Source of the DNA: Candidatus Bathyarchaeota archaeon
GTDB lineage: Archaea > Thermoproteota > Bathyarchaeia > Bathyarchaeales > Bathycorpusculaceae
Assembly: GCA_963707955.1 (NCBI GenBank)
Contig: OY970176.1
Location: 1,888,001-1,952,000, forward strand
Direction of reading: 5' to 3'
DNA length: 64,000 nt
Shown here piece after piece: positions 48,635-64,000 of this stretch. The notes beneath the pieces are model-generated. The model ran no database searches, was not told the origin of the DNA, and saw only the letters and a list, made by a program, of their open reading frames with translations. The translations under genes and the position numbers were made by a program. Each line of letters opens with the position of its first letter. Positions within the stretch are counted from its first letter, which is position 1.

Positions 48635-49807
48635 TCAATCATGGAGAAGAAGGGCGACAGGTATTAAGAGTGCGAACGCTGCTCCTGCTATGAAAAAGGT
48701 GTCTCTGATGCTGATAAATCCCATCAGCGCGCCTGCTGCCAATGGTCCAATCGTGTAGCCCAAGTCTTTGAATGTGGCTATGGCTCCGGTAATCGCGGTT
48801 TTGCTTTCACCCATTATGTCTGACATTCTTGAATACAGCGCTATGAAGATTACCGTGTAGCTCATCGTAAAGGCTGTCACAATCGCCAATGTGCAGTATA
48901 GGCTATTTGATAATGGCATCATAACTGCAGTCAACGTTGTCAAGGAAGCAGCCACAGCAAGTGTCTTCCGTATTCCATGTCTGTCTATCAGATTTCCAAT
49001 CGGCACTTCAAGAGCAACCGCAGGCAGAAGGGCTACAGTGAGTATCACGCCTATCAGTGGAATAGCAATTCCTTCACTGTTAAGAAATATTGGAAGGAAC
49101 GAGTAGTACACATTGATAAGAGCGTAGAACACGATTATGAGAAAAACAGTCTTTACGAACCGGCTATTGCGCATGTAACTCAACAATGTAGTTAGCTGAA
49201 CGTTAAACGATGCTTTCTCGGGCTTGGGCGTCTCCTTCAGGTACAATGAAACCACGATGAACGCAGTTAGGCTTGTTAGGCTTAGTATATAGAAAGGCAG
49301 AAAAAACGAAAGAATCGAGATAAGTCCCCCGACAACTGGAGATAAAGCTGAGGCGAAATCGTTCATGCCAGAAAAGAATCCAACCTCTTTTCCTTTCACA
49401 CTCTTCTCAGCATAAGCGAAAACATATGCCCACGAAGTCAACCACAAAAAGGATGAAGCAACCCCTCTAGTGACGCTTACCAACAACAGCGATAGAAAAG
49501 TGTCTGCCACAGGATAGAGCAGCGCAAGTGCCGAGTAGATTAGCAGCACTATCTGTAGAACTCGTTTTACATTCATTCTGTTCTCTATGATTCCGAATGG
49601 CATGTTGAGGAATATCCCCATCATCGTTGTGAGCGAAAGGATAAGGCCGGTCAGGAACAGGTTTCCAGTGACGTTTTCAACGTATATTGAGAAGATAGGG
49701 GACGTAATTCCCCAGCCGAAAGTGTATATGAAAAATGCGATCGAGATCGGGAAGATTACCCTGTTGAATTTGACAATGTGCCGTAGTTCGCCAAACTCTT
49801 TGAACAT
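48635..49807 (-). CDS. MFS transporter
   Basis: About 12 TM helices, GNLIDRHGIRK loop motif, DLGYTIGP; start moved to ATG 49807. Confidence 0.88.
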   Translation of the reverse strand: MFKEFGELRHIVKFNRVIFPISIAFFIYTFGWGITSPIFSIYVENVTGNLFLTGLILSLTTMMGIFLNMPFGIIENRMNVKRVLQIVLLIYSALALLYPVADTFLSLLLVSVTRGVASSFLWLTSWAYVFAYAEKSVKGKEVGFFSGMNDFASALSPVVGGLISILSFFLPFYILSLTSLTAFIVVSLYLKETPKPEKASFNVQLTTLLSYMRNSRFVKTVFLIIVFYALINVYYSFLPIFLNSEGIAIPLIGVILTVALLPAVALEVPIGNLIDRHGIRKTLAVAASLTTLTAVMMPLSNSLYCTLAIVTAFTMSYTVIFIALYSRMSDIMGESKTAITGAIATFKDLGYTIGPLAAGALMGFISIRDTFFIAGAAFALLIPVALLLHD

Positions 49808-49820
49808 CTGAATCCTACTA

Positions 49821-49838
49821 CAATTCAATATTGAATTG
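49821..49838. promoter_or_regulatory. Perfect 18-bp palindrome upstream of the MFS gene
   Basis: CAATTCAATATTGAATTG, 13 nt upstream of the ATG at 49807. Confidence 0.5.
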
Positions 49839-49919
49839 CATATTAATTCATCCGCGTTAGAGCGCGCGCTATGAACGAAATTTGAATTGTAAAAATAAGG
49901 TGGGTGCTTGTTTGTGCTT

Positions 49920-50153
49920 CTAGCCCTCGCCATTCCTTTCGCCAAGGATGATTAAGCCTACGCCGAAGAACTCAATTGCCATTCCCACAGCGATCCAACA
50001 CAAGTCAGCTAACAAGTCTGCTTGCACACCAAAATGAGCATCATTGTTTATTTTGAAAGTTTGCCAAACCGGTACTAACAGACCAATGACGAGAATGATT
50101 ACGCTCAAAATCCTTGGCGCGCGCAGGCTAAATTCCTGCTCGCTCCTATGCAT
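49920..50153 (-). CDS. Small two-TM protein, possibly a 5'-truncated or chimeric fragment
   Basis: Two hydrophobic segments; a GCGCGCGC junction motif (50117-50124) lies within codons 10-13. Confidence 0.4.
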   Translation of the reverse strand: MHRSEQEFSLRAPRILSVIILVIGLLVPVWQTFKINNDAHFGVQADLLADLCWIAVGMAIEFFGVGLIILGERNGEG

Positions 50154-50640
50154 CGTTATCCGAGTTCACTGTCTTTGGATCGGCAAATTTATCGATTATC
50201 CACTGTTTGATGTCATCTCTTGTGCGTCGAAAGGCCATGGTCTTTTCCTCGTCACTCCCGTCCACTTCAGAAGGATCGTTGAATCCATGGTGAAGATAGT
50301 GTTTTGCTTCAGGTATTATTGTGTTGATTATCTCTGGCCTACCCAAGACTATCGGTGAAGAACACAATGAACACATTAATTTGGCACTGCTCCGGCACAC
50401 CGATACAACTAAGTCGATTTCCTTGTTTCGGAACTCTTCAATGCTCTTGGAATACTGCTTGGAAATATCTATCCCTATCTCAGCCATAACCTTAGTGGCA
50501 AAAGGATTGACTTGCGTCGGATTTGCGCCTGCGCTGAACACTTCATATTTCTCACCGTACAGATGCCTTAGCAAACCTTCAGCCATCTGCGATCGAGCGG
50601 AATTATGTTCACACAAAAAAAGAACTTTTAACTTTTTCAT
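50146..50640 (-). CDS. arsC: LMW-PTP-type arsenate reductase (copy 1)
   Basis: FLCEHNSARSQMAEG P-loop, SAG, DPS..FRRTRD; extended Cys-rich redox loop. Confidence 0.88.
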   Translation of the reverse strand: MKKLKVLFLCEHNSARSQMAEGLLRHLYGEKYEVFSAGANPTQVNPFATKVMAEIGIDISKQYSKSIEEFRNKEIDLVVSVCRSSAKLMCSLCSSPIVLGRPEIINTIIPEAKHYLHHGFNDPSEVDGSDEEKTMAFRRTRDDIKQWIIDKFADPKTVNSDNDA

Positions 50641-50717: not shown

Positions 50718-51380
50718 TTATCGGCAGCAAACAATCAGTCTGACTTGGTCACAGGCGTCTTCACATCGATTGGCAACCATTTCAATAGCTTCAAAAAGAT
50801 CATTCAGTAATATGGCGATTCCTACCCGAATCTTCTCCTCTCTGGCGATCAAACGTTTGGAGTTTTCAAATAGGTCGTCGACTTTCTCTTCTAACCGTTC
50901 GACTTCGTCTGCTGCTTTTAAGGCTTCTTCTCGTTTTTCCGGTATGCTATTAACGCATTTTCGCAGTGCTGTGGCACATTCCTTAGCGCCTTCCACCATC
51001 TTGACCAGCGCTTTTTTGAGGTTTTCTGACACATCTTCCATTGGAATGGCACTTAAAACCCGGCTTGATTCCTGGCTACAGTCTGCGACCATGTCGACGG
51101 ACTTCATTAAGTTCATCAGATATTCTCTGTCTGAGGGCGGCAACTCTCCGCACGTCAGTTCAGTCATAACGGCTCTCCTTAATCCATCGGTTTCCTTCTC
51201 AGAGCTTGTGACCCTTCCTATTGCGGCCTTGGCTTCTTTTTCGTTGAGATCAACTGCTGCTTTTACTGCACTTTCAAGGTCTTCAACTGAGCTCAATGTT
51301 ATCGCAAGATGGCGTTGCATCGGAGCTATAGCTTTTGATTCTCTGCGTTTCTCAAACCACTTCAATAGGAGTTCACTCAA
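50718..51380 (-). CDS. DUF47/PhoU-like phosphate transport regulator
   Basis: Duplicated helical repeat: EKETDGLRR..DRE..DMVAD and ERLEEKVDD..E.VANRCEDA.D. Confidence 0.88.
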   Translation of the reverse strand: MSELLLKWFEKRRESKAIAPMQRHLAITLSSVEDLESAVKAAVDLNEKEAKAAIGRVTSSEKETDGLRRAVMTELTCGELPPSDREYLMNLMKSVDMVADCSQESSRVLSAIPMEDVSENLKKALVKMVEGAKECATALRKCVNSIPEKREEALKAADEVERLEEKVDDLFENSKRLIAREEKIRVGIAILLNDLFEAIEMVANRCEDACDQVRLIVCCR

Positions 51381-51495: not shown

Positions 51496-51930
51496 TCAGT
51501 TTTCCGTGATGCCTCTGTCTTTCAGCCATGTTTTTATCTTTTCGCTGATTTTATCGCGAACTTCTCGGAATTTGGCTAATTTTTCCTCTTCTGTTCCTTG
51601 AAATGCTGCTGGGTCTTCGAAGGGCCAGTACAATCTAGTGGATGCCCCCGGTATGGTAGGACACGTCTTTTCTGCTTTTTCACATGCTGTTATGACTATC
51701 CCGAAATGTATCTTTCCCAGATACTGTTTCAACTCTTTTGGATGCTGGTCGCTCAGGTTATATCCCAGTTCTCCCATCACCTTAATGGTGTACGGGTGGA
51801 TAGGTCGAGGTTCGAAGCCTGCACTGTAAACCTCGAAACGATTACCCGCATATTTCCTTAGGAACGCTTCAGCCATTTGGCTCCGTGCCGAATTTCCTGT
51901 GCATAGAAAAATGACTTTGGTCTTTTCCAA
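51496..51930 (-). CDS. arsC: LMW-PTP-type arsenate reductase (copy 2)
   Basis: FLCTGNSARSQMAEA, TACEKAEKTCP redox pair, WPFEDPA, FREVRD. Confidence 0.92.
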   Translation of the reverse strand: MEKTKVIFLCTGNSARSQMAEAFLRKYAGNRFEVYSAGFEPRPIHPYTIKVMGELGYNLSDQHPKELKQYLGKIHFGIVITACEKAEKTCPTIPGASTRLYWPFEDPAAFQGTEEEKLAKFREVRDKISEKIKTWLKDRGITEN

Positions 51931-52014: not shown

Positions 52015-52245
52015 CTACAGTTTCCTATTTCTAAGAGGGTTGCAGTGGCTCTCTTCAATCATCTGCGTAACATCCATTAACATGTCCTGTGCTTCCGCCA
52101 CCAAATCACCAGCTTTTCGCTTTGTACCTTGGCGGTTCTTTATGTAGTCCTCAATTTCCCTTTGCAGAGAGAGAAGGTCGATACTCGTCTGTTCAGTTTT
52201 GAGTAACCGGTACTTTCTGCTTATTTCCTCATAGCTTGCATCCAT
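52015..52245 (-). CDS. Hypothetical 76-aa helical protein, last gene of the DGC/GcvH operon
   Basis: AGGAGA RBS, 18 nt after gcvH; amphipathic helices ending EESHCNP. Confidence 0.65.
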   Translation of the reverse strand: MDASYEEISRKYRLLKTEQTSIDLLSLQREIEDYIKNRQGTKRKAGDLVAEAQDMLMDVTQMIEESHCNPLRNRKL

Positions 52246-52263
52246 GATGGCTTGATCTCCTCT

Positions 52264-52737
52264 CTACGTCTTGTTTGCAGCGTGCGGACCCTTCAGTTGC
52301 TCATGTTCTTTCTCAACTTTCTTCTTCATGACCTCAAAATACCCTTCGGCGTCTGCGAGGTTCTCTTTGTCTGATTCAAAGTCTGTTAGCTCAATCTTCA
52401 GAAACCAGCCTTTGCCGTACGGATCTGAATTGGCCAGGTCAGGTGAATTTACCAATTCATTGTTGACTTCCACTACTGAACCTGAAACAGGCGATATGAC
52501 GTCGAGAGCAGCCTTTACTGATTCAAAAGATCCTGCTTCACCGAACTGTTCAATTACGGTCCCGATTTGTGGGAGGGAAACGAAGATTATGTCACTCAAA
52601 TGATTTTGCAGGTAGGACGTTATGCCAACTGTGGCGATATTCCCGTCGATTCTGGCCCAGAAATCGTTTTCATTGTAGAAAAACCCTTTCGGGACCGTGA
52701 ACGTCCATTTGTCAACCTTTAGCTCTAACGATTCCAT
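52264..52737 (-). CDS. gcvH: GcvH-like lipoyl-carrier protein
   Basis: W.RIDG..ATVGIT, FESVKA (lipoyl-Lys), SPVSG.V.EVN, NSDPYGKGW. Confidence 0.9.
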   Translation of the reverse strand: MESLELKVDKWTFTVPKGFFYNENDFWARIDGNIATVGITSYLQNHLSDIIFVSLPQIGTVIEQFGEAGSFESVKAALDVISPVSGSVVEVNNELVNSPDLANSDPYGKGWFLKIELTDFESDKENLADAEGYFEVMKKKVEKEHEQLKGPHAANKT

Positions 52738-52742
52738 TCACT

Positions 52743-53138
52743 TCACCTTGAAAGCTGATCGACGAGCGTGGCCACTTCTTCAGCTATCTTGGCTACAAGC
52801 TTTTCTCCTTCGTCTCCAATGTCGGTTCGTGACTGTGGTTTTAGCCCGTACTTAGCGATCATTTGGGGCAGAAACACTTTGGCTCTCATCATGCCTTTGT
52901 TCTTGGAGACGATCTTGGTGGCACACCTTTCCACACAACCGTCAAGTATGATAGACGGATATTTCTGCAATAGGCTCTTGTACTCTCCGACTCCTGCGGT
53001 CAAAGATGGAATACATATTAGGACTGCTTTTTCGGGCCTCAATTCGTCAACTACCTTGTATGCGACTTGTCTAGCTACCGTGCCGAGTGCTTTGCCCATG
53101 CCCGTACAGGCTACTATGGCAACTTTCTTATCGTCCAT
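52743..53138 (-). CDS. DGC-domain putative Zn/Fe-S-binding protein (4 of 4)
   Basis: VACTG..LICIP..LDGCVERCA; start taken at MDDKK. Confidence 0.85.
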   Translation of the reverse strand: MDDKKVAIVACTGMGKALGTVARQVAYKVVDELRPEKAVLICIPSLTAGVGEYKSLLQKYPSIILDGCVERCATKIVSKNKGMMRAKVFLPQMIAKYGLKPQSRTDIGDEGEKLVAKIAEEVATLVDQLSR

Positions 53139-53550
53139 GCTTGTCCCCCTCTGCAAGTATTTGGTCAATCTTTTTCGCGGCCAGCTCTCCCACTATTTCT
53201 GCAAGTTTCATTCCTTTTGGTCCTAGCTTAGCTCTCGATTCAGGCTGAAGGTCTTTGTATTCTTTCAGAACATCTTCAACGTTGATAACGGCTTTGATCT
53301 GCCCCTTCGCTTCATTGACTATCTTTTCGCAGCATTTTTCTCCACAGCCATCGATAACCAAAATTGGGTTCTCTTTGGCAAAGGTCATGTCCTCTTTAAC
53401 GCCACCTATTAGGGCTGGAGTGCAAAGCAAGACAGTCTTGTCTGGCCTCAGTTTTTCTAGAACATGATATCCCGCGTATCGGGACACTGTTGCAAGCGGT
53501 CGGTCCATGCCCGTGCAAACAGCAACGGCAACCTTCTTTTCTATTGACAT
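53128..53550 (-). CDS. DGC-domain protein (3 of 4)
   Basis: AVCTG..LLCTP..IDGCGEKCC. Confidence 0.85.
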   Translation of the reverse strand: MSIEKKVAVAVCTGMDRPLATVSRYAGYHVLEKLRPDKTVLLCTPALIGGVKEDMTFAKENPILVIDGCGEKCCEKIVNEAKGQIKAVINVEDVLKEYKDLQPESRAKLGPKGMKLAEIVGELAAKKIDQILAEGDKHGR

Positions 53551-53551
53551 G

Positions 53552-53956
53552 CTACTCTTCTTCCTCCTCTAGTCTGTCTATCTCCGCAGTAATACGTTTC
53601 ATAGTTTCTCTAACAAGCTTCTCGTCTTGAGGTTCTATTCTGCTTTTTGATTTAGGGTTAAGATGTTTATGTTTTTCTTCAATGTCTGATATGATTATTG
53701 ACGATTTGGGATGCACTTTGCCGTACATTTTGACGCCTTTGGCGGCACACATCTTGCCACAGCCGTCAACGGTTATGCAAGGATTATCCTTAGCGAAGTC
53801 TCTCTCTTCTTGTCCGCCTGCGAGAAAGAGTGGAAGGCAGATTGTTACGACATCGTCGCGTTCCTCTAGTATTCTTCGAGTTGCTACGCGGGATATCATT
53901 CCTTCAGGAAGCCCTTCTCCGCTGCAGGAGATCAGGCCTATTTTGCGTTTGATCAA
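53552..53956 (-). CDS. DGC-domain protein (2 of 4)
   Basis: ISCSG..TICLP..CITVDGCGKMCA. Confidence 0.85.
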   Translation of the reverse strand: MIKRKIGLISCSGEGLPEGMISRVATRRILEERDDVVTICLPLFLAGGQEERDFAKDNPCITVDGCGKMCAAKGVKMYGKVHPKSSIIISDIEEKHKHLNPKSKSRIEPQDEKLVRETMKRITAEIDRLEEEEE

Positions 53957-54357
53957 CTTTTATCCCCTATGATTTTGACAGCTTTTTCGGCTGTTTTTCT
54001 TGCCAGTTTCTCACCGTCAGGTCCGATGTCAAGCACGGTTCCAGGCTTAAGCTTCGGATTCTCCTTGATCACGTCCAGGATCCTGATGCTTCCTTTGAGT
54101 TCTCCGTGATGGTGTTCAACATTTTTCTTGGCACATTGAGCAACGCAGCCATCTAGGGTTATGCAAGGGTTCTTTCTTATTTTCCGCACAGTCTCCTCGT
54201 CTTCGATTGTGAGTAAAGGAAGACAAATAGAATCAGTATCATTCGGCAACAGTTCTTCGGTTACGATGTACGTGGCTCTACGCGTTATGGTTCCCAGTGC
54301 CTTTCCGATTCCGCTACACGGGATGATTATGTACTTACTTTTTTTCTTCTCTGACAT
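53953..54357 (-). CDS. DGC-domain protein (1 of 4)
   Basis: IPCSG..SICLP..CITLDGCVAQCA. Confidence 0.85.
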   Translation of the reverse strand: MSEKKKSKYIIIPCSGIGKALGTITRRATYIVTEELLPNDTDSICLPLLTIEDEETVRKIRKNPCITLDGCVAQCAKKNVEHHHGELKGSIRILDVIKENPKLKPGTVLDIGPDGEKLARKTAEKAVKIIGDKS

Positions 54358-54625
54358 TCTTTATCACCTTCAGGATTTCCTTCTTCTCTGGGAAACTCAG
54401 GGCGTCCGCAGCGCAAACTTTGGAACACGCCCTGCAGAACACGACGCAGTTGTTCGGGTTTTTGACGATGAATTCCTTCTTTTCCTTGTTGTATTCGAAC
54501 ACTCCATGGGGGCAGAATCTGAGGCATTGCGGGTCGCCCTCGCACTGGTTACATTTTAATGTATCGATCTTTGGGCACCAAGGGATTTTGCTTCGTGGAA
54601 CTCCCATGTATGTTTCTTCTGTCAT
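54335..54625 (-). CDS. 2x[4Fe-4S] ferredoxin
   Basis: GVPRSKIPWCP.ID..KCNQC....QCLRFCPHGVF and NCVVFCRACSKVC...ALSFP. Confidence 0.88.
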   Translation of the reverse strand: MTEETYMGVPRSKIPWCPKIDTLKCNQCEGDPQCLRFCPHGVFEYNKEKKEFIVKNPNNCVVFCRACSKVCAADALSFPEKKEILKVIKNVREEKK

Positions 54626-54990
54626 GGCTGGCTGCTGGCCTCCAGCGCTTTCTTCACGGTTTCTAAGGCCTTTTCGGTCGTCATATTCCTGACGTCAAGA
54701 GAAACTAGGTCTTTGTTTATGTCAAGTCCTGCCTTTGCAAAGGCGTCTCGAAACAGTTTCTTCTGCATAACTGGGGCACATCCTCCTATGACATAGAGTC
54801 TGTCTTTTCGGAGAAAGTCTGCAAAGAAACGTTCCCCGTCTTCATCGCAGAGCATGGGATGGATGAATGCGTATTCAACTGGATACTCTGCTCTTATGAC
54901 GTTTATGAAATCCCACATATCCAAATCTTTGAACCCAGGGCACTTGCCCGTGCAGACACAGAATATGAAGCTTACTTTTCTTTTTTCCAC
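54622..54990 (-). CDS. Stand-alone protein resembling the HdrA N-terminal Fe-S domain
   Basis: FIFCVCTGKC..MLC..G..VIGGCAP.MQKKLF..AG...LDVR parallels VFICHCG..YTC..VVASCTP.THEPLF..AG..TNIR of the HdrA proteins in this window. Confidence 0.7.
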   Translation of the reverse strand: MEKRKVSFIFCVCTGKCPGFKDLDMWDFINVIRAEYPVEYAFIHPMLCDEDGERFFADFLRKDRLYVIGGCAPVMQKKLFRDAFAKAGLDINKDLVSLDVRNMTTEKALETVKKALEASSQP

Positions 54991-55053
54991 GAACTATTCC
55001 TCTTCTGGCATATCTCGATTGACTTTTTTGACCACGCGGATACAGAAGAGTTC

Positions 55054-55077
55054 ATAGCAATATTTAAATATTGTTAT
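55054..55077. promoter_or_regulatory. Palindromic operator overlapping a symmetric TATA box between arsR and the divergent operon
   Basis: ATAGCAATATTTAAATATTGTTAT; the core CAATATTTAAATATTG (55058-55073) is a perfect palindrome. Confidence 0.7.
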
Positions 55078-55093
55078 TACTCTTATCGTAAGC

Positions 55094-55420
55094 ATGCATT
55101 CCAAAGCAGAGAAACTCGTCAAGTTCAAGGCAAAGATTTTCAACGCCCTATCGGACCCGACGAGACTTGAAATCCTCGAATTCCTACGCATCAATGAGAA
55201 ATGCGTGTGCGAAATAATTCCGCACGTTGGATTAATCCAGCCCGTGGTATCCCGCCATTTGAGAATTCTCAAAGACTGTGGACTGGTGAGGGACAGAAAA
55301 GACGGCAACAAAAGACTCTATTCAATTACAGATCGCAGAATATTCGAGATAATTGATGCGGCGACCCTTGAACTGATGGATGATATTTCAAAACGTATCG
55401 TTGAAGAATTGGTTTATTAG
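55094..55420 (+). CDS. arsR: ArsR/SmtB-family repressor with CVC metalloid-binding site
   Basis: FNALSDPTRLEIL, EKCVCEI, QPVVSRHLRILKDCGLV..RKDG...YS. Confidence 0.93.
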   Translation: MHSKAEKLVKFKAKIFNALSDPTRLEILEFLRINEKCVCEIIPHVGLIQPVVSRHLRILKDCGLVRDRKDGNKRLYSITDRRIFEIIDAATLELMDDISKRIVEELVY

Positions 55421-55425
55421 CTTAG

Positions 55426-57840
55426 GTGAGCGTTTTGGTCGGTCCAGACAAAGAACAGGAATTGTTAGGAACAAACTTAGAAAATGGACTAGAAACTCTT
55501 GAAGCCCAGAGAAGGCTTGAAGAGTATGGATACAATGAGATCTCCGAGAAGAAAGAGAGTTTTTTCGTAAGGCTTGGAAAACGTTTCTGGGGCATCGTGC
55601 CTTGGATGCTGGAAGCCACAGCAGTCATTACGTTTCTACTGGGTAAGTATCCGCAGACGCTCGTCATCGTGTTCCTTCTTTTCTTCAACGCTGCAATGTC
55701 ACTGTGGCGAGAGAAAAGAGCGAAAGTGGCAATGACCGCGTTGAAGCAGAGGCTGCGGATCCAGGGAAGAGTTAAGAGGGACGGAAAATGGTCAATCATC
55801 CCGGCTAGGGAACTTGTTCCGGGTGACCTTGTAAGAGTCAGGGCAGGCGACTTGTTGCCAGCGGACGTGAGAATCATTGACGGTTCTTTCGGCGTTGATC
55901 AGTCAGCCCTCACCGGCGAATCCATAATCGTGGAAAGGTCCACTGGAGAAATAGCTTATTCAGGATCAGCGGTCAAACGCGGTGAAGCTACGGGCACAGT
56001 CGATGCCACGGGAACAAAGACTTACTTTGGGAAAACGGTTTCACTGCTGGAGCTTGCAAAACCTAAACTGCACATGGAGGAGGTAACAGTCAAAGTTGCG
56101 CACCGACTTCTCACAATAGTGCTTGTATCTCTTCTAGCCGTCTTCGTGTACGCTCTTCTGACAGGTTTCCCACTTGATGTGCTGCTGCCGCTTGCAGGCG
56201 TACTCCTTGTGGCTTCTGTGCCCGTTGCAATGCCGACCATGTTCACTGTAAATATGGCACTTGGATCGTCAGCGCTTGCGAAGCAAGGAGTCCTTGTTAC
56301 AAGACTCAGTGCAAGCGAGGACGCAGCTACTATGGACGTGTTATGCGCAGACAAGACAGGCACAATCACTATGAATAAACTCTTCATAGAAGAGGAAATA
56401 CCGACTGATGGATTCAGCAAAAGCGACGTTTTGCTCTACGGGGCGCTCGCGTCGAAAGAAGCTAATCAAGACCCCATAGACACAGCATTTTTAGTGGCCG
56501 CAGCTGAGGAACACATCTCATTAGACAGTTACTCACAGATGGAGTTCCTGCCGTTTGATCCTAAAACTAGAATGACAGAAGCTACGATTCAGAAATCGGG
56601 TGAAACATTCTTTGTGGGAAAAGGATCATTCGACGCCATATGCGTTTCCTGCAATTTGTCAGATAAGGAGACAAAAGATCTGTTCAGACATGCTGAGGCA
56701 CTCTCGGCTAAGGGATTTAGAGTGATTGCTGTTGCTAGGGGGAGTCATAGAAGCAGGCTTCAGTTAGTGGGTCTCACAGGGGTAGCCGACAGGATAAGGG
56801 AAGACTCGCGAGGTGCATTAAACCGAATCCGCGATTTGGGCATATCTGTAAAGATGCTTACGGGTGATGCGCTCCCGATTGCAAGAAACATCGCCCAGCA
56901 AGTAGGACTAGGCGACAAAATAACCCGAATGTCAAAGATTGAAAAGATCCAGAATCAAAGAGAGACTCTTGACTCCACGGTTGAAGACAGTGATGGCATT
57001 GCTGAGATTTACCCTGAAGACAAGTTCACTATAGTGAAGGCTCTCCAGGACCGCGGGCATGTGGTCGGAATGACCGGAGACGGCATAAATGACGCTCCCG
57101 CATTGGGGCAGGCAGAAGTGGGAATAGCAGTAAGGAACGCAATGGACATTGCCAAAGATTCGGCAAGTGCCGTGCTCACTGCTGAGGGTCTTGGAGGCAT
57201 AATAGCTATGATCAAGACGTCGAGGACAATTTACCAGCGAATCTATAGCTGGGCGTTGATGATGGTCGCTCGGAAACTGCATATCGTCGGGTACATTGTT
57301 GTTATGCTGTTTTTAACTCACTCCTTCATGCTGTCAATTACTGGCACGGTGCTGCTGCTTTTCCTAGGCGACTTCGTCTCGATGTCTATATCGACGGATA
57401 ACGTGCAGTCTTCTTCGAAGCCTGATTCGTTCAAAGTTTCGCGGCTGTTTGGAGTCAGCGGATCATTAGGAATATTAATGGTAATTGAAAGTGCAGTTCT
57501 CACCGTGGCTGGTTTGTCATATTTCGGGCTGACCGGCAGCGTGGACAAGATCTACACATTCGGGTTTGCTTATTTGAATCTTGCAGGAGTATTCACTCTC
57601 ATGATCGTACGTGAACGGAATCATTTCTGGAAGTCACGGCCCAGCAATTTTCTAAGCATCACAGTCACGGCGGAAATCCTGTTTGTGATTGCGATTTCGC
57701 TCTTAGGCTTCCTAGAACTTGCTCCACTCGGCTGCATACCCGTACTTACAATCTTGGGCTATACATTAATAGTGACGTTTCTGATCAATGACCCCGTCAA
57801 GGTATATCTGATACGCAAATTCAAAAGCGGTCCACAATGA
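55426..57840 (+). CDS. P-type ATPase, type IIIA (plasma-membrane H+-ATPase)
   Basis: DQSALTGES, VPVAMP, CADKTGTIT, PFDP, MLTGD, PEDK, TGDGINDAPAL, TM6 Asp (LGDF), STDNV. Confidence 0.92.
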   Translation: MSVLVGPDKEQELLGTNLENGLETLEAQRRLEEYGYNEISEKKESFFVRLGKRFWGIVPWMLEATAVITFLLGKYPQTLVIVFLLFFNAAMSLWREKRAKVAMTALKQRLRIQGRVKRDGKWSIIPARELVPGDLVRVRAGDLLPADVRIIDGSFGVDQSALTGESIIVERSTGEIAYSGSAVKRGEATGTVDATGTKTYFGKTVSLLELAKPKLHMEEVTVKVAHRLLTIVLVSLLAVFVYALLTGFPLDVLLPLAGVLLVASVPVAMPTMFTVNMALGSSALAKQGVLVTRLSASEDAATMDVLCADKTGTITMNKLFIEEEIPTDGFSKSDVLLYGALASKEANQDPIDTAFLVAAAEEHISLDSYSQMEFLPFDPKTRMTEATIQKSGETFFVGKGSFDAICVSCNLSDKETKDLFRHAEALSAKGFRVIAVARGSHRSRLQLVGLTGVADRIREDSRGALNRIRDLGISVKMLTGDALPIARNIAQQVGLGDKITRMSKIEKIQNQRETLDSTVEDSDGIAEIYPEDKFTIVKALQDRGHVVGMTGDGINDAPALGQAEVGIAVRNAMDIAKDSASAVLTAEGLGGIIAMIKTSRTIYQRIYSWALMMVARKLHIVGYIVVMLFLTHSFMLSITGTVLLLFLGDFVSMSISTDNVQSSSKPDSFKVSRLFGVSGSLGILMVIESAVLTVAGLSYFGLTGSVDKIYTFGFAYLNLAGVFTLMIVRERNHFWKSRPSNFLSITVTAEILFVIAISLLGFLELAPLGCIPVLTILGYTLIVTFLINDPVKVYLIRKFKSGPQ

Positions 57841-58226: not shown

Positions 58227-59006
58227 GTGAAGATTGCAGTTTCTGGCAAGGGAGGTGTGGGTAAGACTCTCATAGCAGCGGGTCTTGCCTGCTGCTTAGT
58301 CGATAAGGGTTTCAAGACTATAGCCATTGATGCTGATTCTTCCCCGAATCTTGCCTTGACCCTGGGCTTAACGCCTGAAAAGTCAAGACAAATACTGCCC
58401 ATCTCAGAGAACAAAAAACTGGTTGAATCAAAAACCGACACAGGCTTCTCGGGCGTTTACCGTCTCTCCTTCAAAGTGGACGACGTTGTCCGCGAGTATT
58501 CGGTGAAAACACCGTTTGGCGTGAACTTGATCGTCATGGGAACGGTGAAATCGATGGGTTCAGGGTGCACTTGTCCAGAGAACGCCGTCGTTCGGGCCTT
58601 GCTTCGCCATCTGGTTGTGGAGCGAGACGAGGCGGTTGTTCTTGACACGGAGGCGGGGGTTGAGCACATGGGCAGAGGAACGGCAAAGCATGTGGACACT
58701 CTGCTGATCGTCGCGGACGCGAACATGAAATCTCTCGAGGTAGCCAAACACATTCAAGAATTGGCCTCAGGCTCGAGCATGAAGCAGATTTATCTGGTTG
58801 GAAACAAGGTCGGAGACAAGGTTCAAAAAGAAGCGATCGATAATTTTGCGCGGGAAAACGGTTTGAAAATATTGGCCTTTATTCCCTTCGATCGGAAAGT
58901 CCTGGACATGGAGATGAAGGGGGAAACGCCGCTGAAAGACAGGGGCTCAGAGGCGGTTCGAGCAATAGAAGTGCTTGCTGACATGCTCATAGCGAAGAAA
59001 GAATAA
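58227..59006 (+). CDS. cooC: CooC-type nickel-insertion ATPase
   Basis: [37 protein letters not shown]. Confidence 0.92.
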   Translation: MKIAVSGKGGVGKTLIAAGLACCLVDKGFKTIAIDADSSPNLALTLGLTPEKSRQILPISENKKLVESKTDTGFSGVYRLSFKVDDVVREYSVKTPFGVNLIVMGTVKSMGSGCTCPENAVVRALLRHLVVERDEAVVLDTEAGVEHMGRGTAKHVDTLLIVADANMKSLEVAKHIQELASGSSMKQIYLVGNKVGDKVQKEAIDNFARENGLKILAFIPFDRKVLDMEMKGETPLKDRGSEAVRAIEVLADMLIAKKE

Positions 59007-59054
59007 TAAAAAGTTGAGGAAATAACCGACTGTGCAAGAAGGTGTAAAGTAATA

Positions 59055-59825
59055 TTGAAGAAACTTGTGACGATAGGTCGCGGGGGAACGGGAAAGACTA
59101 GTTTCGTGGCGTTGAAGACAAAATACTTCATTGAAATGGGAGCGACGCCTCTGCTTTTGGTGGACGCTGATCCGGACCAGAACCTTGGGGAAATGGTTGG
59201 CGTAGATTTGAAGGAAGAGGGGAAGAAAACGATTTCCGAACTGCTCATGGAGGCTTTTTTGAAGGAAGGTGGAACAACCGTCGGTGTTCCGCCCACTGAA
59301 CGAATCGAAAACAGGATCTGGGCTCAAGGCATGTACGAAGGCGACTTTTTCGATTTCATTTCTATCGGAACAAAATGGGTTGAAGGCTGCTACTGCCTGC
59401 CAAACGCCGCATTGAAAGGAGCCTTGGAATCAGTTTCTAAAAACTACAAGTACATCTTGATAGACTCGCCAGCAGGACTGGAACATCTAAACCGTAGGAT
59501 CACGTCGAAAGTTGACGACATCTTCGACGTCCTCGACCCGTCCAAAAAATCATTCGACCACGTTGACCGGGCCTACCGCATAGCGAAGGAGGTAAAGATA
59601 GAATTCAAGAATTTCTACGTCGTTGGCGGTTACAGGTTTCCAGAAGGCTTAGAGAAGAGCGCTGATAGCACCTTGAAATTTGATTTCTTGGGAAAAATCG
59701 CTCGCGACGACGAAGTTGAAGAATACGTTCTAGCTGGAAAATCGCTCCTAGAACTGCCTCCTGACTCTCCAGCCTACCTCTCCGTCAAGAGAATAGTGGA
59801 CAGGGCAGGCTACACGAAAGAGTAG
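59055..59825 (+). CDS. CooC2/AcsF-type maturation ATPase
   Basis: GRGGTGKT, VDADPDQNL, EGCYC..N, IDSPAGLEHLNRR. Confidence 0.88.
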   Translation: MKKLVTIGRGGTGKTSFVALKTKYFIEMGATPLLLVDADPDQNLGEMVGVDLKEEGKKTISELLMEAFLKEGGTTVGVPPTERIENRIWAQGMYEGDFFDFISIGTKWVEGCYCLPNAALKGALESVSKNYKYILIDSPAGLEHLNRRITSKVDDIFDVLDPSKKSFDHVDRAYRIAKEVKIEFKNFYVVGGYRFPEGLEKSADSTLKFDFLGKIARDDEVEEYVLAGKSLLELPPDSPAYLSVKRIVDRAGYTKE

Positions 59826-59984
59826 TTGGCCTCATCTTTTTCACTATTCTGGGGTGAACCCTGCCGAGAAGTACCTGAATTATCTCTGCAGATCGATTAT
59901 TCATAGTGGACTTTTGTTCCAGAAATGCTTATGAGCGAAGGCGTCATTAGATTTCGTCTTCTTCGTCGTCAGGTAGTGCCATAA

Positions 59985-62333
59985 TTGAGTAGAAAAGATC
60001 TTAATGTGAAGATCGGAGAATTGAAGACTGATTTTGGTTTTGTGAAGAATCTTGAACTTTCAATCGGCAAGGTTGTCGATGGAACCTGGACCGAACCCAT
60101 GGGTCCTACGCCTTTTCCGTCCCTGACAACTCTAAGGGAGTGGGACATGAGGATCCTTCAGCGCTACAAACCTTTCTACATGCCCTTCTGCGACCTTTGC
60201 TGCCTCTGCACCATGGGAAAATGCGACCTTACAGGATCCAAGCGCGGAGCGTGCGGAATCAACATGCCGGCTCAACAGTCAAGAACAATGCTTCTAGCCT
60301 GCTGCATCGGAGCAGCAACTCACGTCGGCCACGCTCGCCACTTACTTGAACATCTGATCGAAGAATTCGGACGCGAACACCAAATTGACGTGGGCGGGCT
60401 GAACGTCCAAGTTGAGGCTCCGACGATCCGCCTCGTTTGCGGGTTAAGACCTCGAACACTTGCTGACCTACGGGAGGTGCTGGATTATGCTGAGTCCCAA
60501 CTCACACACTTATTGTCTGTCGTGCACACTGGACAAGAAGGGAACAACCTTGACTTTGAATCAAAAGTCTTCCATGCAGGGATGATAGACCATCTGGGCA
60601 TGGAAGTCGCAGACGTTGCTCAAATTGCGGCCTACGGCTTTCCAAAAGCAGACCCAGACGCCCCGCTTGTTGATCTGGGCTTTGGCACGATAAACACGGA
60701 AAAACCCGTGATCCTTGTCATAGGACACAATGTTGTCCCTTCCATTGGCATAATAGATTACATGAAAGACAACGGTTTTGACGGTGAAATCGAGGTCTGC
60801 GGACTGTGCTGCACAGCCCACGACATAACCAGATACTACAACCGTGCAAAGGTTGTCGGCCCAATCTCGTGGCAGTTACGCTTCATAAGAAGTGGTGTTC
60901 CAGACCTGGTTGTGCTTGATGAACAATGCGTCAGAGCAGATGCCTTCAACGAATCGCAAAACATCAAAACACCAGTCATCGTTACATCAGAAAAGAACTG
61001 CATGGGTCTGCCAAACCGAACAAACGACCCAGCAGACGCGATAGTCGAAGATCTGGTGTCAGGAAAGACGCCGGGCGCGCTGATTCTTGACCCTGAAAAA
61101 GTCGGAGAAGTAGCTACAAAAGTGGCGTTGAAAGTGGCGCCTCTTCGGAAAAAATTCAAGGTGCTGCCCGATGTTGACGAAGTCATCAAGGCAGGAAAGG
61201 AATGCACTCAGTGCAACGCTTGCATTCGAGCATGCCCGGAAGACTTGGAAATTCCTGAAGCCATGAAGGCAGCGGGCGAAGGAAACTTGACGAAGCTCGC
61301 AGAACTGTACGACTTGTGCATTGGCTGCGGGCGATGCGAGGCTCCGTGCCCGAAGGGCACAAAGATTCACAGCTGCATCGTGAGGGCTGGGGACAAGAAA
61401 CTCAGGAACGAGACGTACAAGTTGAGAGTTGGAAGAGGAGCCATACAAGACGTGGAGATAAGGAACGTTGGGGCCCCGCTTGTGTTCGGCGAGATTCCTG
61501 GTGTGGTAGCCTTCGTCGGATGCGCTAACTATCCGAAGGGCGGAAAAGAAGTTGCTGAGATGTGCATGGAGTTTGCGAACAGACGCTACATAGTTGTGAC
61601 CTCAGGTTGTGCCGCAATGTCTGCTGGCATGTACAAAGACGAAGATGGAAAATCACCGTACGAGAAGTACACGGGCGAATTTGCTGCCGGAGGAATCGTC
61701 AACGTTGGTTCATGCGTTGCCAACTCGCACATTGCTGGCGCTGTGATAAAGATTGCAAACATATTCGCGAAGCGGAATCTGCGGGGGAACTATGAGGAGA
61801 TAGCCGACTACGTGCTCAATCGTGTGGGCGCCGTCGGCGTTGCTTGGGGAGCCTACTCTCAGAAGGCAGCTTCTATCTCAGCTGGGTTCTGGCGGTTAGG
61901 CGTTCCCGTCGTCGTTGGCCCTCACGGAACAAAGTACAGGCGCATGCTTCTGGGAAGGGCTGACCGAGAAGAAGACTGGTGCGTTTACGATGCAAGGACA
62001 GGAGAAAAAACGTATGTTGGACCAACACCCGAGCATCTGTTCTGCGCCGCTGAGACAAAAGAGGAAGCAACAGTTATGGTAAGCAAGCTCTGCATGAGAC
62101 CCAACGACACTCCGAAAGGAAGGGCCATAAAACTCACGCATTACATCGATTTGCATAAGAGGCTGTACGGAATTATGCCTCAGGACACACACCTGTTTGT
62201 TCGCACACTTGCGGACGTTCCGATAACGATGAAAGATGAAATCATCAAGACTCTTGAAGAGAAGGATTGGAAGGAAACAGTGATTCCCGACCCGACGCTT
62301 TTGCCAAGACTGATCAGAAAGAGGAAGGAGTAA
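59985..62333 (+). CDS. cdhA: CO dehydrogenase/acetyl-CoA synthase complex subunit alpha
   Basis: CDLCCLCTMGKC..GACG, GHN, GLCCTAHD, DEQCVR, two ferredoxin motifs, VGCANY, SGC, GSCVANSH, SQKAA. Confidence 0.97.
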   Translation: MSRKDLNVKIGELKTDFGFVKNLELSIGKVVDGTWTEPMGPTPFPSLTTLREWDMRILQRYKPFYMPFCDLCCLCTMGKCDLTGSKRGACGINMPAQQSRTMLLACCIGAATHVGHARHLLEHLIEEFGREHQIDVGGLNVQVEAPTIRLVCGLRPRTLADLREVLDYAESQLTHLLSVVHTGQEGNNLDFESKVFHAGMIDHLGMEVADVAQIAAYGFPKADPDAPLVDLGFGTINTEKPVILVIGHNVVPSIGIIDYMKDNGFDGEIEVCGLCCTAHDITRYYNRAKVVGPISWQLRFIRSGVPDLVVLDEQCVRADAFNESQNIKTPVIVTSEKNCMGLPNRTNDPADAIVEDLVSGKTPGALILDPEKVGEVATKVALKVAPLRKKFKVLPDVDEVIKAGKECTQCNACIRACPEDLEIPEAMKAAGEGNLTKLAELYDLCIGCGRCEAPCPKGTKIHSCIVRAGDKKLRNETYKLRVGRGAIQDVEIRNVGAPLVFGEIPGVVAFVGCANYPKGGKEVAEMCMEFANRRYIVVTSGCAAMSAGMYKDEDGKSPYEKYTGEFAAGGIVNVGSCVANSHIAGAVIKIANIFAKRNLRGNYEEIADYVLNRVGAVGVAWGAYSQKAASISAGFWRLGVPVVVGPHGTKYRRMLLGRADREEDWCVYDARTGEKTYVGPTPEHLFCAAETKEEATVMVSKLCMRPNDTPKGRAIKLTHYIDLHKRLYGIMPQDTHLFVRTLADVPITMKDEIIKTLEEKDWKETVIPDPTLLPRLIRKRKE

Positions 62334-62339
62334 GCGGAC

Positions 62340-62882
62340 ATGGCAACAGCTGAACCCTGGCAGACGGCTGAGATAGCTGGACCAAAAAAGGCGATGGTAG
62401 TCACAAAACCAGAAGTGGCCGTAGCGATGATTAAGCAGGCAAAACGCCCGATTCTCATCGTCGGTCACAGAGCTGCTGAAATTGAACTAGGAGACAAGAA
62501 GCTGATCGATTACGTCATTGAGCTGTCTGAGAAAGCCAAAATTCCGGTTGTCGCAACCGCCCACATTGTAGGTGAGTTTTTGAAAAGGGGTTGCCAACCA
62601 GCTGGCTGGATGCCCGCGGTTGACGTGGGCAACAGGCTGATCGACCCAGACTGGTGCGGGTTTGACGGTAAAGGCCAGTACGACTTAGCCTTGTTCGTCG
62701 GCCTTCCATACTACATGGAGTGGACGATTCTTTCCGGCGTGAAACACTTCGCTCCAACGCTCAGGACTGTCACACTGGACAACGTTTATCAACCCAACGC
62801 AAGCTGGTCTTTACCAAACATTGCAAAGAAAATTTGGACAGAAGACCTCAGAGCGATAATTGAAAAAGTCGGAGGAAAATAA
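62340..62882 (+). CDS. cdhB: ACDS complex subunit epsilon
   Basis: PWQTAEIAGP, AKRPILIVG, GFDGKGQYDL, YQPNASWS.PN. Confidence 0.95.
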   Translation: MATAEPWQTAEIAGPKKAMVVTKPEVAVAMIKQAKRPILIVGHRAAEIELGDKKLIDYVIELSEKAKIPVVATAHIVGEFLKRGCQPAGWMPAVDVGNRLIDPDWCGFDGKGQYDLALFVGLPYYMEWTILSGVKHFAPTLRTVTLDNVYQPNASWSLPNIAKKIWTEDLRAIIEKVGGK

Positions 62883-62891
62883 GAAGTGTCA

Positions 62892-64000
62892 ATGTTTAAA
62901 GACATACCCGTTGACGTGGGCGTTATCTACGAGGGCGAAAGAATTCGCAGAAAAGACATGTACGTCGAGCTTGGCGGACCTGACGTTAAAGAGAAGTTTG
63001 AGCTAGTGAGGGTCAAGAAAGCAAAAGAGGTCGAGGACGGAAAAATAACCATCGTTGGACCTGACCTGAAAGACATGGAAGAAGGCAAAATCTACCCGTT
63101 TGGAATACTCATCGAAGTCGCGGGGCCCAAGCTCGAGGCAGAACTAGAGGGCGTGATAGAGAGGCGGATACACGCTTTCTCCAACTATATTGAAGGGCTC
63201 ATGCATCTGAACCAGCGATACGACATTTGGCTCAGGCTCAGCAAGAGATCCTTCGAGAAAGGTTTGAACTCCTTCGATTATGTTGGAAAGGTCCTGCACA
63301 GACTCTTCAAAAGCGAGCTGCCAATAATCGAAAAGATGCAAGTAACGTTCATCACGGATTCTAAGAAGGTGAAGGAACTCTACGATGAAGCCTTACAGGT
63401 TTATGAAACAAGAGACGCAAGAGCAAGAGGCTTGAAGGACGAGGAAGTGGACAAGTTCTACGGATGCGTTCTGTGCCAGTCCTTCGCTCCGTCCCACGTC
63501 TGCGTGATCACACCGCAGAGATACTCGAACTGCGGAGCCATAAGCTGGTTTGACGGAAGAGCCGCGGCCAGCATAGACCCGAAGGGGCCTGTCTTCACGA
63601 TCGAAAGAGGCGAACTGCTTGACCCCGTCGCAGGAGAGTTCTCAGGTGTAAATGAAGCGGTGAAGAAGAAGTCTCTGGGCGAAATAACCAGGGTGCAACT
63701 CTACACAGCGTTCGGCCACCCGCACACGTCGTGCGGTTGCTTCGAGGGAGTCGCCTTCTACATTCCAGAAGTAGACGGGTTCGGCATCGTGCACAGAGGC
63801 TTCAAGGACACAACCGTCAACGGGTTGGGCTTCTCAACGATCGCCGATTCCACCGCCGGAGGGCGCCAGGTGGATGGGTTCCACGGTTTATCCATCGAGT
63901 ACATGCGCTCTCCAAAGTTTCTGCAGGCAGACGGCGGCTGGAAACGCGTCGTTTGGCTGCCTAAAGAAGTGAAAGAAAGGGTGAGAAACTTCGTCGCAGC
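62892..64000 (+). CDS. cdhC: ACDS complex subunit beta (acetyl-CoA synthase), runs off the window
   Basis: Manual translation MFKDIPVDVGVIYEGERIRRKDMYVELGG..HLNQRYDIW..YGCVLCQSFAPSHVC..NCGAI..PHTSCGCFE. Confidence 0.96.
   Translation, partial: MFKDIPVDVGVIYEGERIRRKDMYVELGGPDVKEKFELVRVKKAKEVEDGKITIVGPDLKDMEEGKIYPFGILIEVAGPKLEAELEGVIERRIHAFSNYIEGLMHLNQRYDIWLRLSKRSFEKGLNSFDYVGKVLHRLFKSELPIIEKMQVTFITDSKKVKELYDEALQVYETRDARARGLKDEEVDKFYGCVLCQSFAPSHVCVITPQRYSNCGAISWFDGRAAASIDPKGPVFTIERGELLDPVAGEFSGVNEAVKKKSLGEITRVQLYTAFGHPHTSCGCFEGVAFYIPEVDGFGIVHRGFKDTTVNGLGFSTIADSTAGGRQVDGFHGLSIEYMRSPKFLQADGGWKRVVWLPKEVKERVRNFVA

Follow-up and report, generated by a model that had tools for sequence, protein, structure and literature searches.

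An ArsR-linked operon of HdrA-like, ferredoxin, DGC and lipoyl-carrier genes in Bathyarchaeia as a candidate redox module of archaeal arsenic regulons

Arsenic resistance is among the best-mapped detoxification systems, and to our knowledge no role has been assigned there to lipoyl proteins, HdrA-type Fe-S proteins or DGC proteins (PF08859). An operon that combines all three lies in a stretch of 64,000 nucleotides (nt) from a Candidatus Bathyarchaeota archaeon (GCA_963707955.1, contig OY970176.1, positions 1,888,001 to 1,952,000, forward strand), hereafter the window, in a genome assembled as a single contig of 2.35 Mb that is 97% complete. The nearest known systems are sHdr-LbpA and ArsTX. 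The first pairs Hdr-like proteins with GcvH-like carriers, dedicated ligases and ArsR-type repressors (PMC6067878, PMC12423496), and the Hdr-like Fe-S complex has been proposed to reduce the lipoyl group of LbpA (PMC6067878). The second consists of a thioredoxin reductase and a thioredoxin encoded in actinobacterial ars clusters (PMC6514093).

Set beside sHdr-LbpA, the bathyarchaeal operon is alike in encoding an Hdr-family Fe-S protein together with a GcvH-like lipoyl carrier, in having an ArsR-family regulator adjacent, at a few loci (L006, L099 and L109, but not the window) in the company of lipoate-ligase genes, and in that electron exchange between Fe-S and lipoyl groups is proposed for both. 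It differs in that the Hdr component is only a 122-amino-acid (aa) homolog of the HdrA N-terminal domain (HdrA-N), with DGC proteins instead of an HdrA body binding flavin adenine dinucleotide (FAD), HdrB or HdrC, in that it is linked to Acr3 and ArsC and almost never to sulfur transferases, and in that the profile scores of its H protein remain those of a canonical GcvH. With ArsTX it shares the character of a redox module, accessory to an ars cluster, from which an ArsC of the thioredoxin type would draw a protein dithiol. ArsTX is based on NADPH and FAD and works with thioredoxin, whereas the operon would be based on ferredoxin and Fe-S clusters and work with a lipoyl group, and it has no thioredoxin-fold or flavoprotein component.

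A third point of comparison is the ars operon of Pseudodesulfovibrio mercurii ND132, in the order ArsR-ArsP-thioredoxin-like-DGC (bioRxiv 10.1101/2022.10.17.512643), which was the one relevant passage in the searchable literature on DGC/PF08859 or lipoyl proteins with arsenic. As here, a PF08859 protein lies within an ArsR-controlled cluster, and the ND132-type partners ArsP_1 and Thioredoxin_3 adjoin the HdrA-N/ferredoxin gene pair at 5 of our loci (L046, L054, L060, L123 and L146); ND132 differs in having one DGC gene and no HdrA-N protein, ferredoxin or GcvH. The initial annotation did not recognize the bathyarchaeal gene set as a named system, and we likewise found no description of it in the searchable literature, subscription journals and supplements lying outside that scope.

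Our preferred reading, held tentatively and at somewhat short of an even chance, is that the operon serves an archaeal arsenic regulon as an accessory module, a ferredoxin-fed relay that would keep the dithiol of a lipoyl protein reduced, either for ArsC recycling or for arsenite handling. On this reading the cluster would be an accessory thiol/redox module of ars regulons made from unexpected parts, and potentially more than that.

Gene content and recurrence of the operon

Eight minus-strand open reading frames (ORFs) run from 54990 to 52015 in the order HdrA-N-like protein, ferredoxin, DGC1, DGC2, DGC3, DGC4, GcvH paralog and a 76-aa ORF (Table 1). The tight coupling claimed for them in the initial annotation is borne out by the ORF coordinates, with intergenic gaps that never exceed 18 nt. 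The HdrA-N-like/ferredoxin and DGC1/DGC2 pairs overlap by 4 nt and ferredoxin/DGC1 by 23 nt, and gaps of 1, 5 and 18 nt separate DGC2/DGC3, DGC4/GcvH and GcvH/76-aa ORF. DGC3 and DGC4 overlap by 41 nt from the listed TTG of DGC4, or by about 11 nt if DGC4 starts at an internal ATG; the consensus of DGC4 orthologs opens MxDKKVAIV, which matches the ATG near 53138. Family profiles, a structural model and alignments confirmed the other parts of the original description as well, namely the HdrA-type fold, the ferredoxin, the four DGC proteins, the lipoyl lysine and a divergent CVC-type ArsR, from which the operon is separated by a 103-nt intergenic region. The 76-aa protein has no match in Pfam or NCBIfam scans; its gene is present at L001, L004, L005, L007, L046, L047 and many metagenome loci, and it frequently adjoins ArsC or a CcdA-like pair.

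Table 1. Coordinates of the operon, its regulator and the flanking genes in the window.
Feature	Position	Strand	Basis
ArsR/SmtB repressor, C37-V38-C39 motif	55094..55420	+	PF01022, NF033788; divergent from operon
Palindrome, 24 nt, predicted ArsR operator	55054..55077		Arms 92% complementary
HdrA N-terminal-domain-like Fe-S protein, 122 aa	54622..54990	-	Foldseek and five invariant Cys
2x[4Fe-4S]-type ferredoxin, 96 aa	54335..54625	-	Fer4_7 and Fer4_6 above cut-off
DGC1	53953..54357	-	PF08859, 59.5 bits vs cut-off 27
DGC2	53552..53956	-	PF08859, 59.9 bits; orthologs found
DGC3, four-DGC version only	53128..53550	-	PF08859, 54.4 bits
DGC4, probable start at internal ATG near 53138	52743..53168	-	PF08859, 56.7 bits
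GcvH paralog (lipoyl carrier), 157 aa, N- and C-terminal extensions	52264..52737	-	PF01597, 120.6 bits
76-aa protein, no known family	52015..52245	-	ORF and recurrence in relatives
ArsC1, low-molecular-weight protein tyrosine phosphatase (LMW-PTP) type	51496..51930	-	PF01451, 68.8 bits
DUF47/PhoU_div protein, between ArsC1 and ArsC2	50718..51380	-	PF01865, 82.1 bits
ArsC2, LMW-PTP type, 17-aa insertion	50146..50640	-	PF01451, 63.6 bits
P-type ATPase, type IIIA-like	55426..57840	+	TIGR01647 (type-IIIA proton-ATPase model), 697.3 bits vs cut-off 615.5

The gene set is conserved elsewhere. A metagenome scan gave 599 pattern-matched stretches, 575 of them with a relative of the HdrA-N-like protein, of which the best 80 were used (64-98% identity). 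These 80 loci are not independent, because many of the contigs come from one sediment sample series and the loci were selected as the closest relatives, and the counts of ferredoxin, DGC, GcvH, ArsR and Acr3 genes are limited to loci with enough flanking DNA. A ferredoxin gene follows the HdrA-N gene at 68 of the 69 metagenome loci with at least 400 nt downstream. Where at least 2.4 kb of downstream sequence is available (47 metagenome loci), three DGC genes lie downstream of HdrA-N at 28 loci, four at 13, two at 1 and none at 5, which amounts to at least three DGC genes in 41/47, and GcvH is present in 43/47; DGC3 is the paralog missing from the 28 three-DGC loci. Six loci from Bathyarchaeia genomes (L001-L006) carry ArsR and the full HdrA-N-ferredoxin-DGCx4-GcvH series at 85-98% identity, L005 beginning inside DGC1. 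Five other loci (L141, L144, L146, L147 and L148) have the same genes in a changed order, which points to functional linkage rather than inherited synteny. The arrangement is more than chance, its gene content recurring in most related loci. The cluster is common in metagenomes from anoxic sediment, wetland and peat, habitats where arsenic mobilization is a practical concern, and the lineage that carries it, the Bathyarchaeia, is abundant and uncultured.

Among 401 Thermoproteota genomes sampled, 56 have an HdrA-N homolog and 58 a DGC protein. In 19 of the 56, the HdrA-N gene has a DGC gene no more than 1 kb away; these 19 belong to 7 genera, with 11 of them in a single genus (counted by eye from coordinates). 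Since none of the 25 other genomes of the window's family has an HdrA-N homolog, the distribution is patchy. At the 20 genome loci with long flanks the HdrA-N/ferredoxin pair, in that order, is present in all 20, 13 have an ArsR at a distance of up to about 1.5 kb (read from coordinates), and the extension to DGCx3-GcvH occurs in the two genomes of the window's order.

Regulator, probable operator and arsenic genes

The divergently transcribed regulator is an ArsR-family protein (PF01022, E 1.7e-18; NF033788, 94 bits), and the CVC motif is retained in 10 of the 12 ArsRs that adjoin HdrA-N/ferredoxin pairs. This motif, the R773-type site, is established as a site of As(III) sensing. A search of the PDB with the ArsR sequence returned only generic ArsR/SmtB proteins (SrnR, Rv0081, SmtB and CzrA), so that no characterized As(III) sensor is its nearest relative there. 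Between the divergent genes lies a 24-nt palindrome, ATAGCAATATTT followed by AAATATTGTTAT, which overlaps a TATA-like core. It is nearly identical in the intergenic DNA of L001-L004 and L006 and is found also at the distant L048, L049, L054 and L059, where the proteins are 46-62% identical and the intergenic flanks unrelated, with looser versions at L047, L052 and L056. It is the sole site within 5 mismatches in the 2.35-Mb genome, and its 16-nt core had 0 matches in each of five shuffles. Judged by this conservation, the palindrome is the probable operator of ArsR.

Linkage to ars genes, the other expectation raised by the initial annotation, extends to the relatives. ArsR lies within 900 nt upstream at 52 of the 68 loci with at least 800 nt of upstream sequence, and where the upstream sequence reaches 2.5 kb or more (44 loci), Acr3 (at least 60% identity to the L003 protein) is present at 24; a P-type ATPase occurs at 4 of those 44, and one or the other at 27. 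ArsC is found at most loci of the window's genus. The Acr3 proteins of L003 and L047 score above the TIGR00832 cut-off (326.9 and 340.1 vs 282.8), and at both loci arsR and acr3 are co-directional, with acr3 where the window has its ATPase. The ATPase gene of the window begins 6 nt after arsR, an order found also at L001, L002, L004, L073 and L081-L083. The window had been described as containing neither Acr3 nor ArsB, and this absence holds for the whole 2.35-Mb genome, in which the profiles for Acr3 (TIGR00832), ArsB (PF02040) and ArsP (PF03773) have 0 matches each; it needs the qualifier that a P-type ATPase sits in the slot that Acr3 occupies in relatives. This ATPase may be part of an arsenic or metal response.

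Three further observations concern potential exporters and the genes beyond them. A second locus of the genome (L067, C1:2202761-2206147) encodes ArsR, an LMW-PTP ArsC and a P-type ATPase 47% identical to that of the window; heavy-metal ATPases with HMA and YHS domains flank this locus, as does a fusion of HMA and thioredoxin. A major facilitator superfamily (MFS) gene at 48635-49945 was considered as an arsenic exporter and dropped, since its matches are to generic MFS models and tblastn finds it in none of L001-L007. Directly downstream of the arsR-ATPase unit, positions 58227-63998 of the window hold two CooC-like ATPases, followed by CdhA (Prismane carrying a Fer4 insert), CdhB and CdhC.

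An ArsR-family repressor over Hdr-like and lipoate-binding proteins could also be a persulfide sensor, and the operon would then belong to sulfane-sulfur handling of the sHdr-LbpA type, moving or oxidizing sulfur. The partnership of Hdr-like proteins, GcvH-like carriers, dedicated ligases and ArsR-type repressors in that system speaks for this idea, as does one bathyarchaeal locus (L046:170-5979) at which the operon is prolonged by genes for DUF169, the 76-aa protein, another of 231 aa, DsbD_TM, TusA and a YeeE-like sulfur transporter, and then for two DsrE proteins, DsrH and a further GcvH-like protein, one without the lipoyl lysine. Across the 80 metagenome loci, however, TusA was found once and YeeE, DsrE and DsrH not at all, against 24/44 for Acr3. 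The eight proteins also contain no match to HdrB, HdrC or an FAD domain in Pfam and NCBIfam scans, and the regulator carries the CVC motif and scores 37.5 bits on the BigR model against a cut-off of 155. We therefore regard a role in sulfur handling as very improbable.

Fe-S, DGC and lipoyl proteins

The HdrA-N-like protein has no Pfam family match, and its match to the HdrA model NF041778 is weak (E 0.0067, 14.3 bits vs a 1400-bit cut-off) and confined to the N-terminal domain, at residues 5-97, rather than covering a full-length flavo-Fe-S subunit. Its AlphaFold model, built on an alignment of 19 homologs, has a predicted local distance difference test (pLDDT) score of 93, and in Foldseek the top PDB matches of this model are all HdrA chains, aligned at their N-terminal domain (7bkd_A, E 2.5e-6 and query TM-score (TMq) 0.79; 5odc_A, TMq 0.76); MvhD chains are weaker matches, with TMq of about 0.46. 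Five cysteines, C11, C13, C17, C48 and C71, are invariant among the 19 sequences of the family, and C11, C13, C48 and C71 align to HdrA cysteines that we take to be the [4Fe-4S] ligands of the published structures. With the HdrA of methanogen HdrABC-Mvh/Fdh complexes (PDB 5odc, 7bkb and 7bkd), the protein thus has in common the fold of the N-terminal [4Fe-4S] domain (TMq 0.76-0.79) and, by alignment, four cysteines. It differs in being a stand-alone protein where HdrA has about 650 aa, and in the additional invariant C17 within a CxCxGxCP motif.

A single metagenome protein of 221 aa (P0242) is a fusion of HdrA-N and ferredoxin, and this lone fusion supports a physical association of the two. 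The linker of P0242 is Arg/Gly-rich, and a frameshifted gene call is an alternative source of the fusion.

The four DGC proteins match PF08859 with E values of 1.5e-14 to 2.7e-16 (54.4-59.9 bits vs a cut-off of 27), are 27-40% identical to one another, and make up the full DGC complement of the genome. Their conserved cysteines, among them that of the D/G-G-C motif, are the invariant C14, C71 and C75 together with C45, which is kept in at least 90% of sequences; the set might hold an Fe-S cluster or another metal. The model of DGC1 (pLDDT 93) is flavodoxin-like and without a specific PDB relative, Foldseek returning nothing from the PDB at E <= 0.001. Sequence searches of the PDB with DGC proteins gave no meaningful match, and a search of the ESM Atlas with DGC1 gave unnamed clusters only (0.75-0.77). 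In a wide fold alignment (VIA-align), the best match of DGC1 is 3pu6_A (Z 9.6), with hydrogenase maturation proteases at Z of about 7.7; the HdrA-N model reaches a similar generic flavodoxin-like set (3pu6_A, Z 6.9; 1cfz_A, Z 7.0), and the structural overlap of the two models is one of common fold only. Homology between HdrA-N and DGC was considered and is unsupported, with a profile-profile probability of 0.4%, though their cysteines are similarly placed after strands 1, 2 and 3. Complex predictions from DGC paralog alignments with DGC4 as partner, which scored 0.17 and 0.19 where the mark is 0.32, speak neither for nor against a hetero-oligomer. One DGC protein (P0233) is from Hodarchaeota, and in another genome (G025:C13:30014-30327) the DGC gene beside HdrA-N matches as two fragments, of which one contains an in-frame TAG, and is possibly a decaying copy.

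The lipoyl carrier passes curated GcvH cut-offs (PF01597, E 4.8e-35; TIGR00527, 123.9 vs 115.85; NF002270, 134.5 vs 117), and its lipoyl lysine, K75 in an ESVKA motif, is kept in all 6 operon-type sequences aligned. It had been called an orphan, and of the glycine-cleavage genes looked for, neither GcvP nor the Lpd-like gene lies near it. It is also a second copy, 38% identical to a canonical GcvH (136 bits) that is encoded elsewhere and followed by the gene of an Lpd-like flavoprotein (genome 1245932-1247699); a split GcvP lies at 301477-303785. At L006 (5147-7721), L099 and L109 the GcvH gene is followed by a DUF5714 gene and two lipoate-protein-ligase genes, with L097 and L102 at contig ends; this ligase pair does not follow GcvH in the window. 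The linked ligases match PF21948 and fall below the cut-off of TIGR00545, and the Cys-rich DUF5714 protein has a match of half length, at 157 bits vs a 600-bit cut-off, to 'metal-binding double selenoprotein MbdU' of NCBIfam. Together, the conserved K75 and the linked ligase pairs suggest that the GcvH paralog is a functional carrier that would be lipoylated. A strong PF03099 match elsewhere in the genome (2223861-2224658) was rejected as a lipoate ligase, because the presence of BPL_C makes it a biotin ligase.

An H protein that scores above curated cut-offs might also serve a housekeeping purpose, with the operon as a ferredoxin-dependent stand-in for dihydrolipoamide dehydrogenase in glycine cleavage or reductive glycine synthesis, or as an Fe-S repair system, to which ArsR would be merely adjacent. 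The host, a ferredoxin-based Wood-Ljungdahl anaerobe, would suit such a role, and genes of Mrp/NUBPL Fe-S carriers lie near the HdrA-N/ferredoxin pair at L059, L061 and L004. Yet the canonical GcvH has an Lpd-like neighbor of its own, the patchy distribution (0/25 other genomes of the family) is hard to reconcile with housekeeping, and the linkage to ArsR, Acr3 and the operator is too regular for coincidence, which leaves this the least probable of the explanations we considered.

Proposed electron flow and candidate acceptors

If the operon is a relay of the kind we prefer, its working can be sketched as follows. The CVC-type ArsR would sit on the palindrome between the divergent promoters and let go on binding a thiophilic metalloid, As(III) being the likeliest, so that arsenite would induce a soluble relay for electrons and thiols. 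Its natural donor would be reduced ferredoxin, of which this Wood-Ljungdahl archaeon has plenty, since the organism has CdhABC (59985-63998), an archaeal carbon monoxide dehydrogenase/acetyl-CoA synthase. This ferredoxin would feed the operon's own 2x[4Fe-4S] ferredoxin and its HdrA-N-like protein with one [4Fe-4S] cluster, and the DGC proteins, three or four in number and of Cys4 type, would convey the electrons from there to the lipoyl disulfide on the GcvH paralog. The output would be a dihydrolipoyl-protein, that is, a protein-bound vicinal dithiol, which could re-reduce disulfide-dependent partners (in this genus the thioredoxin-type ArsC, elsewhere a membrane thiol transporter of CcdA type) or could alternatively take up As(III) and pass it to an efflux pump. 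The anatomy of the operon suggests that low-potential electrons are directed into a protein dithiol: its translationally coupled genes encode proteins predicted to hold three [4Fe-4S] clusters in all, along with the small Cys4 proteins, three or four of them, and the lipoyl carrier.

If this is how the operon works, then strict anaerobes would link low-potential ferredoxin to the reduction or handling of arsenic, the DGC family would receive its first function, and the non-canonical roles of lipoate-binding proteins would reach past sulfur oxidation. The relay is directly testable in vitro, since the operator is conserved and the proteins are small and soluble.

The most immediate candidate acceptors are the two ArsCs. 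Both align to ArsC of B. subtilis (1jl3; ArsC1, E 1.2e-30; ArsC2, E 1.7e-22) at the P-loop Cys and both distal Cys, and by sequence both have the thioredoxin-coupled Cys triad, for which a dithiol reductant would be required. As initially described, the two arsC genes follow the operon on the same strand; they are less tightly coupled than the eight, however, because gaps of 84, 115 and 77 nt lie around ArsC1, the DUF47 gene and ArsC2 and the DUF47 gene intervenes. The order ArsC1-DUF47-ArsC2 is found also at L004 and L082, and an ArsC follows the operon at L001, L003, L004, L005 and L007 and does not at L002 and L006.

Several observations weigh against a ferredoxin-fed relay that serves ArsC. 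The ArsCs score 132.3 (ArsC1) and 106.5 (ArsC2) bits against the TIGR02691 equivalog cut-off of 174.3 for the pI258 type, and an ArsC is present in just 5 of 25 long-flank metagenome loci. The initial annotation had started from the absence of thioredoxin, which stands for the window but not for the genome, where four PF00085 thioredoxins score above cut-off elsewhere; ArsC is therefore not strictly dependent on a new reductant, and the premise that it needs one is weakened. Given these thioredoxins and the Lpd-like gene beside the canonical GcvH, the module is not strictly needed for the reduction of either ArsC or lipoyl groups. A dihydrolipoyl group is moreover a prime target of As(III), which it binds tightly, and thus would be an odd choice of arsenite-induced reductant. 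Supply of the cofactor is a further difficulty, since the sole LplA-like gene of the genome (C1:174678-175525) is split over two frames that overlap near 175085-175148, reflecting either an assembly error or a pseudogene/frameshift, so that lipoylation in this genome is putative. Neither the profile comparison with the HdrA-N family nor the fold search gave the DGC proteins a function, and CVC motifs are borne by Cd/Pb sensors of the ArsR family as well. Finally, the HdrA-N/ferredoxin pair occurs elsewhere without DGC or GcvH, amid unrelated neighbors. In other lineages the surroundings of the bare pair include PF04060 'FeS' proteins at 6 of 18 loci, as well as ArsP_1 permeases, Thioredoxin_3, CMD/AhpD-like proteins and DUF169, an assortment that overlaps with the ND132 operon.

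The acceptor could instead lie in the membrane, where some relatives have a CcdA-type thiol transporter, and not ArsC, at the end of the operon. At L046 and L047 the operon extends past GcvH into the 76-aa gene, a membrane-anchored protein of 231-233 aa and a DsbD_TM/CcdA-type protein, and the same CcdA-type extension is found at 11 of the 25 long-flank metagenome loci. The operon might on this evidence be the cytoplasmic reductant of an extracytoplasmic thiol system, with the CcdA/DsbD-type protein and its membrane-anchored, thioredoxin-fold partner as acceptor and ArsC as a later addition of secondary rank in the window's genus. The CcdA-type pair is not beside the operon in the window or its genus, however; the 231-233-aa partner, whose match to ResA is weak, has no canonical CxxC; and the linkage to ArsR and Acr3 would be left unexplained. 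We consider it quite improbable that the operon mainly serves an extracytoplasmic thiol system.

The affinity of dihydrolipoyl groups for arsenite, which counts against them as a reductant, invites the opposite interpretation, in which the proteins buffer arsenite or act as its chaperone. As(III) would bind to the lipoyl dithiol and to the DGC cysteines and be handed on to a pump (Acr3 in relatives, perhaps the ATPase here), and the Fe-S proteins would only maintain the thiols; ArsD, which hands As(III) to ArsA, is the model for such a role. Tight binding of arsenite by dihydrolipoyl groups is textbook knowledge, each DGC protein offers three invariant and one nearly invariant Cys, and the pump gene would share a transcript with arsR from the divergent promoter region. 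The 25 long-flank loci fit this view as well, 20 having no ArsC and yet 11 having Acr3. A stoichiometric trap would be costly, though, three Fe-S clusters exceed the apparent need of thiol upkeep, and Pfam and NCBIfam scans revealed no similarity to ArsD. An arsenite buffer thus appears unlikely to us.

Returning to the relay, a bolder form of it would make the lipoyl group the working thiol of anaerobic archaeal arsenic detoxification. An H protein reduced by way of the Fe-S and DGC proteins would reduce arsenate, directly or via ArsC, and/or carry As(III) to the pump, thereby replacing thioredoxin or glutaredoxin, and ArsC where it is absent, and the DGC proteins would be a new redox family binding Fe-S clusters or metalloids. 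At many loci arsR-acr3 accompanies the operon with no arsC in reach (arsC is missing from 20 of 25 long-flank loci), which leaves room for a module that substitutes for ArsC. We think this stronger version rather unlikely.

Two features of the ArsC surroundings may be added. Proteins of the DUF47/PhoU_div family usually pair with PiT phosphate transporters, and the presence of such a gene between arsC1 and arsC2 hints at a link between phosphate and arsenate; a paralog 56% identical to this DUF47 gene lies at 503503-504141 of the genome. Just past ArsC, a convergent gene for an HxlR-family regulator is found at L001 (9466-9885), L003 (9180-9593) and L005 (2758-3147), and regulators of this family are present at 7 of the 80 metagenome loci.

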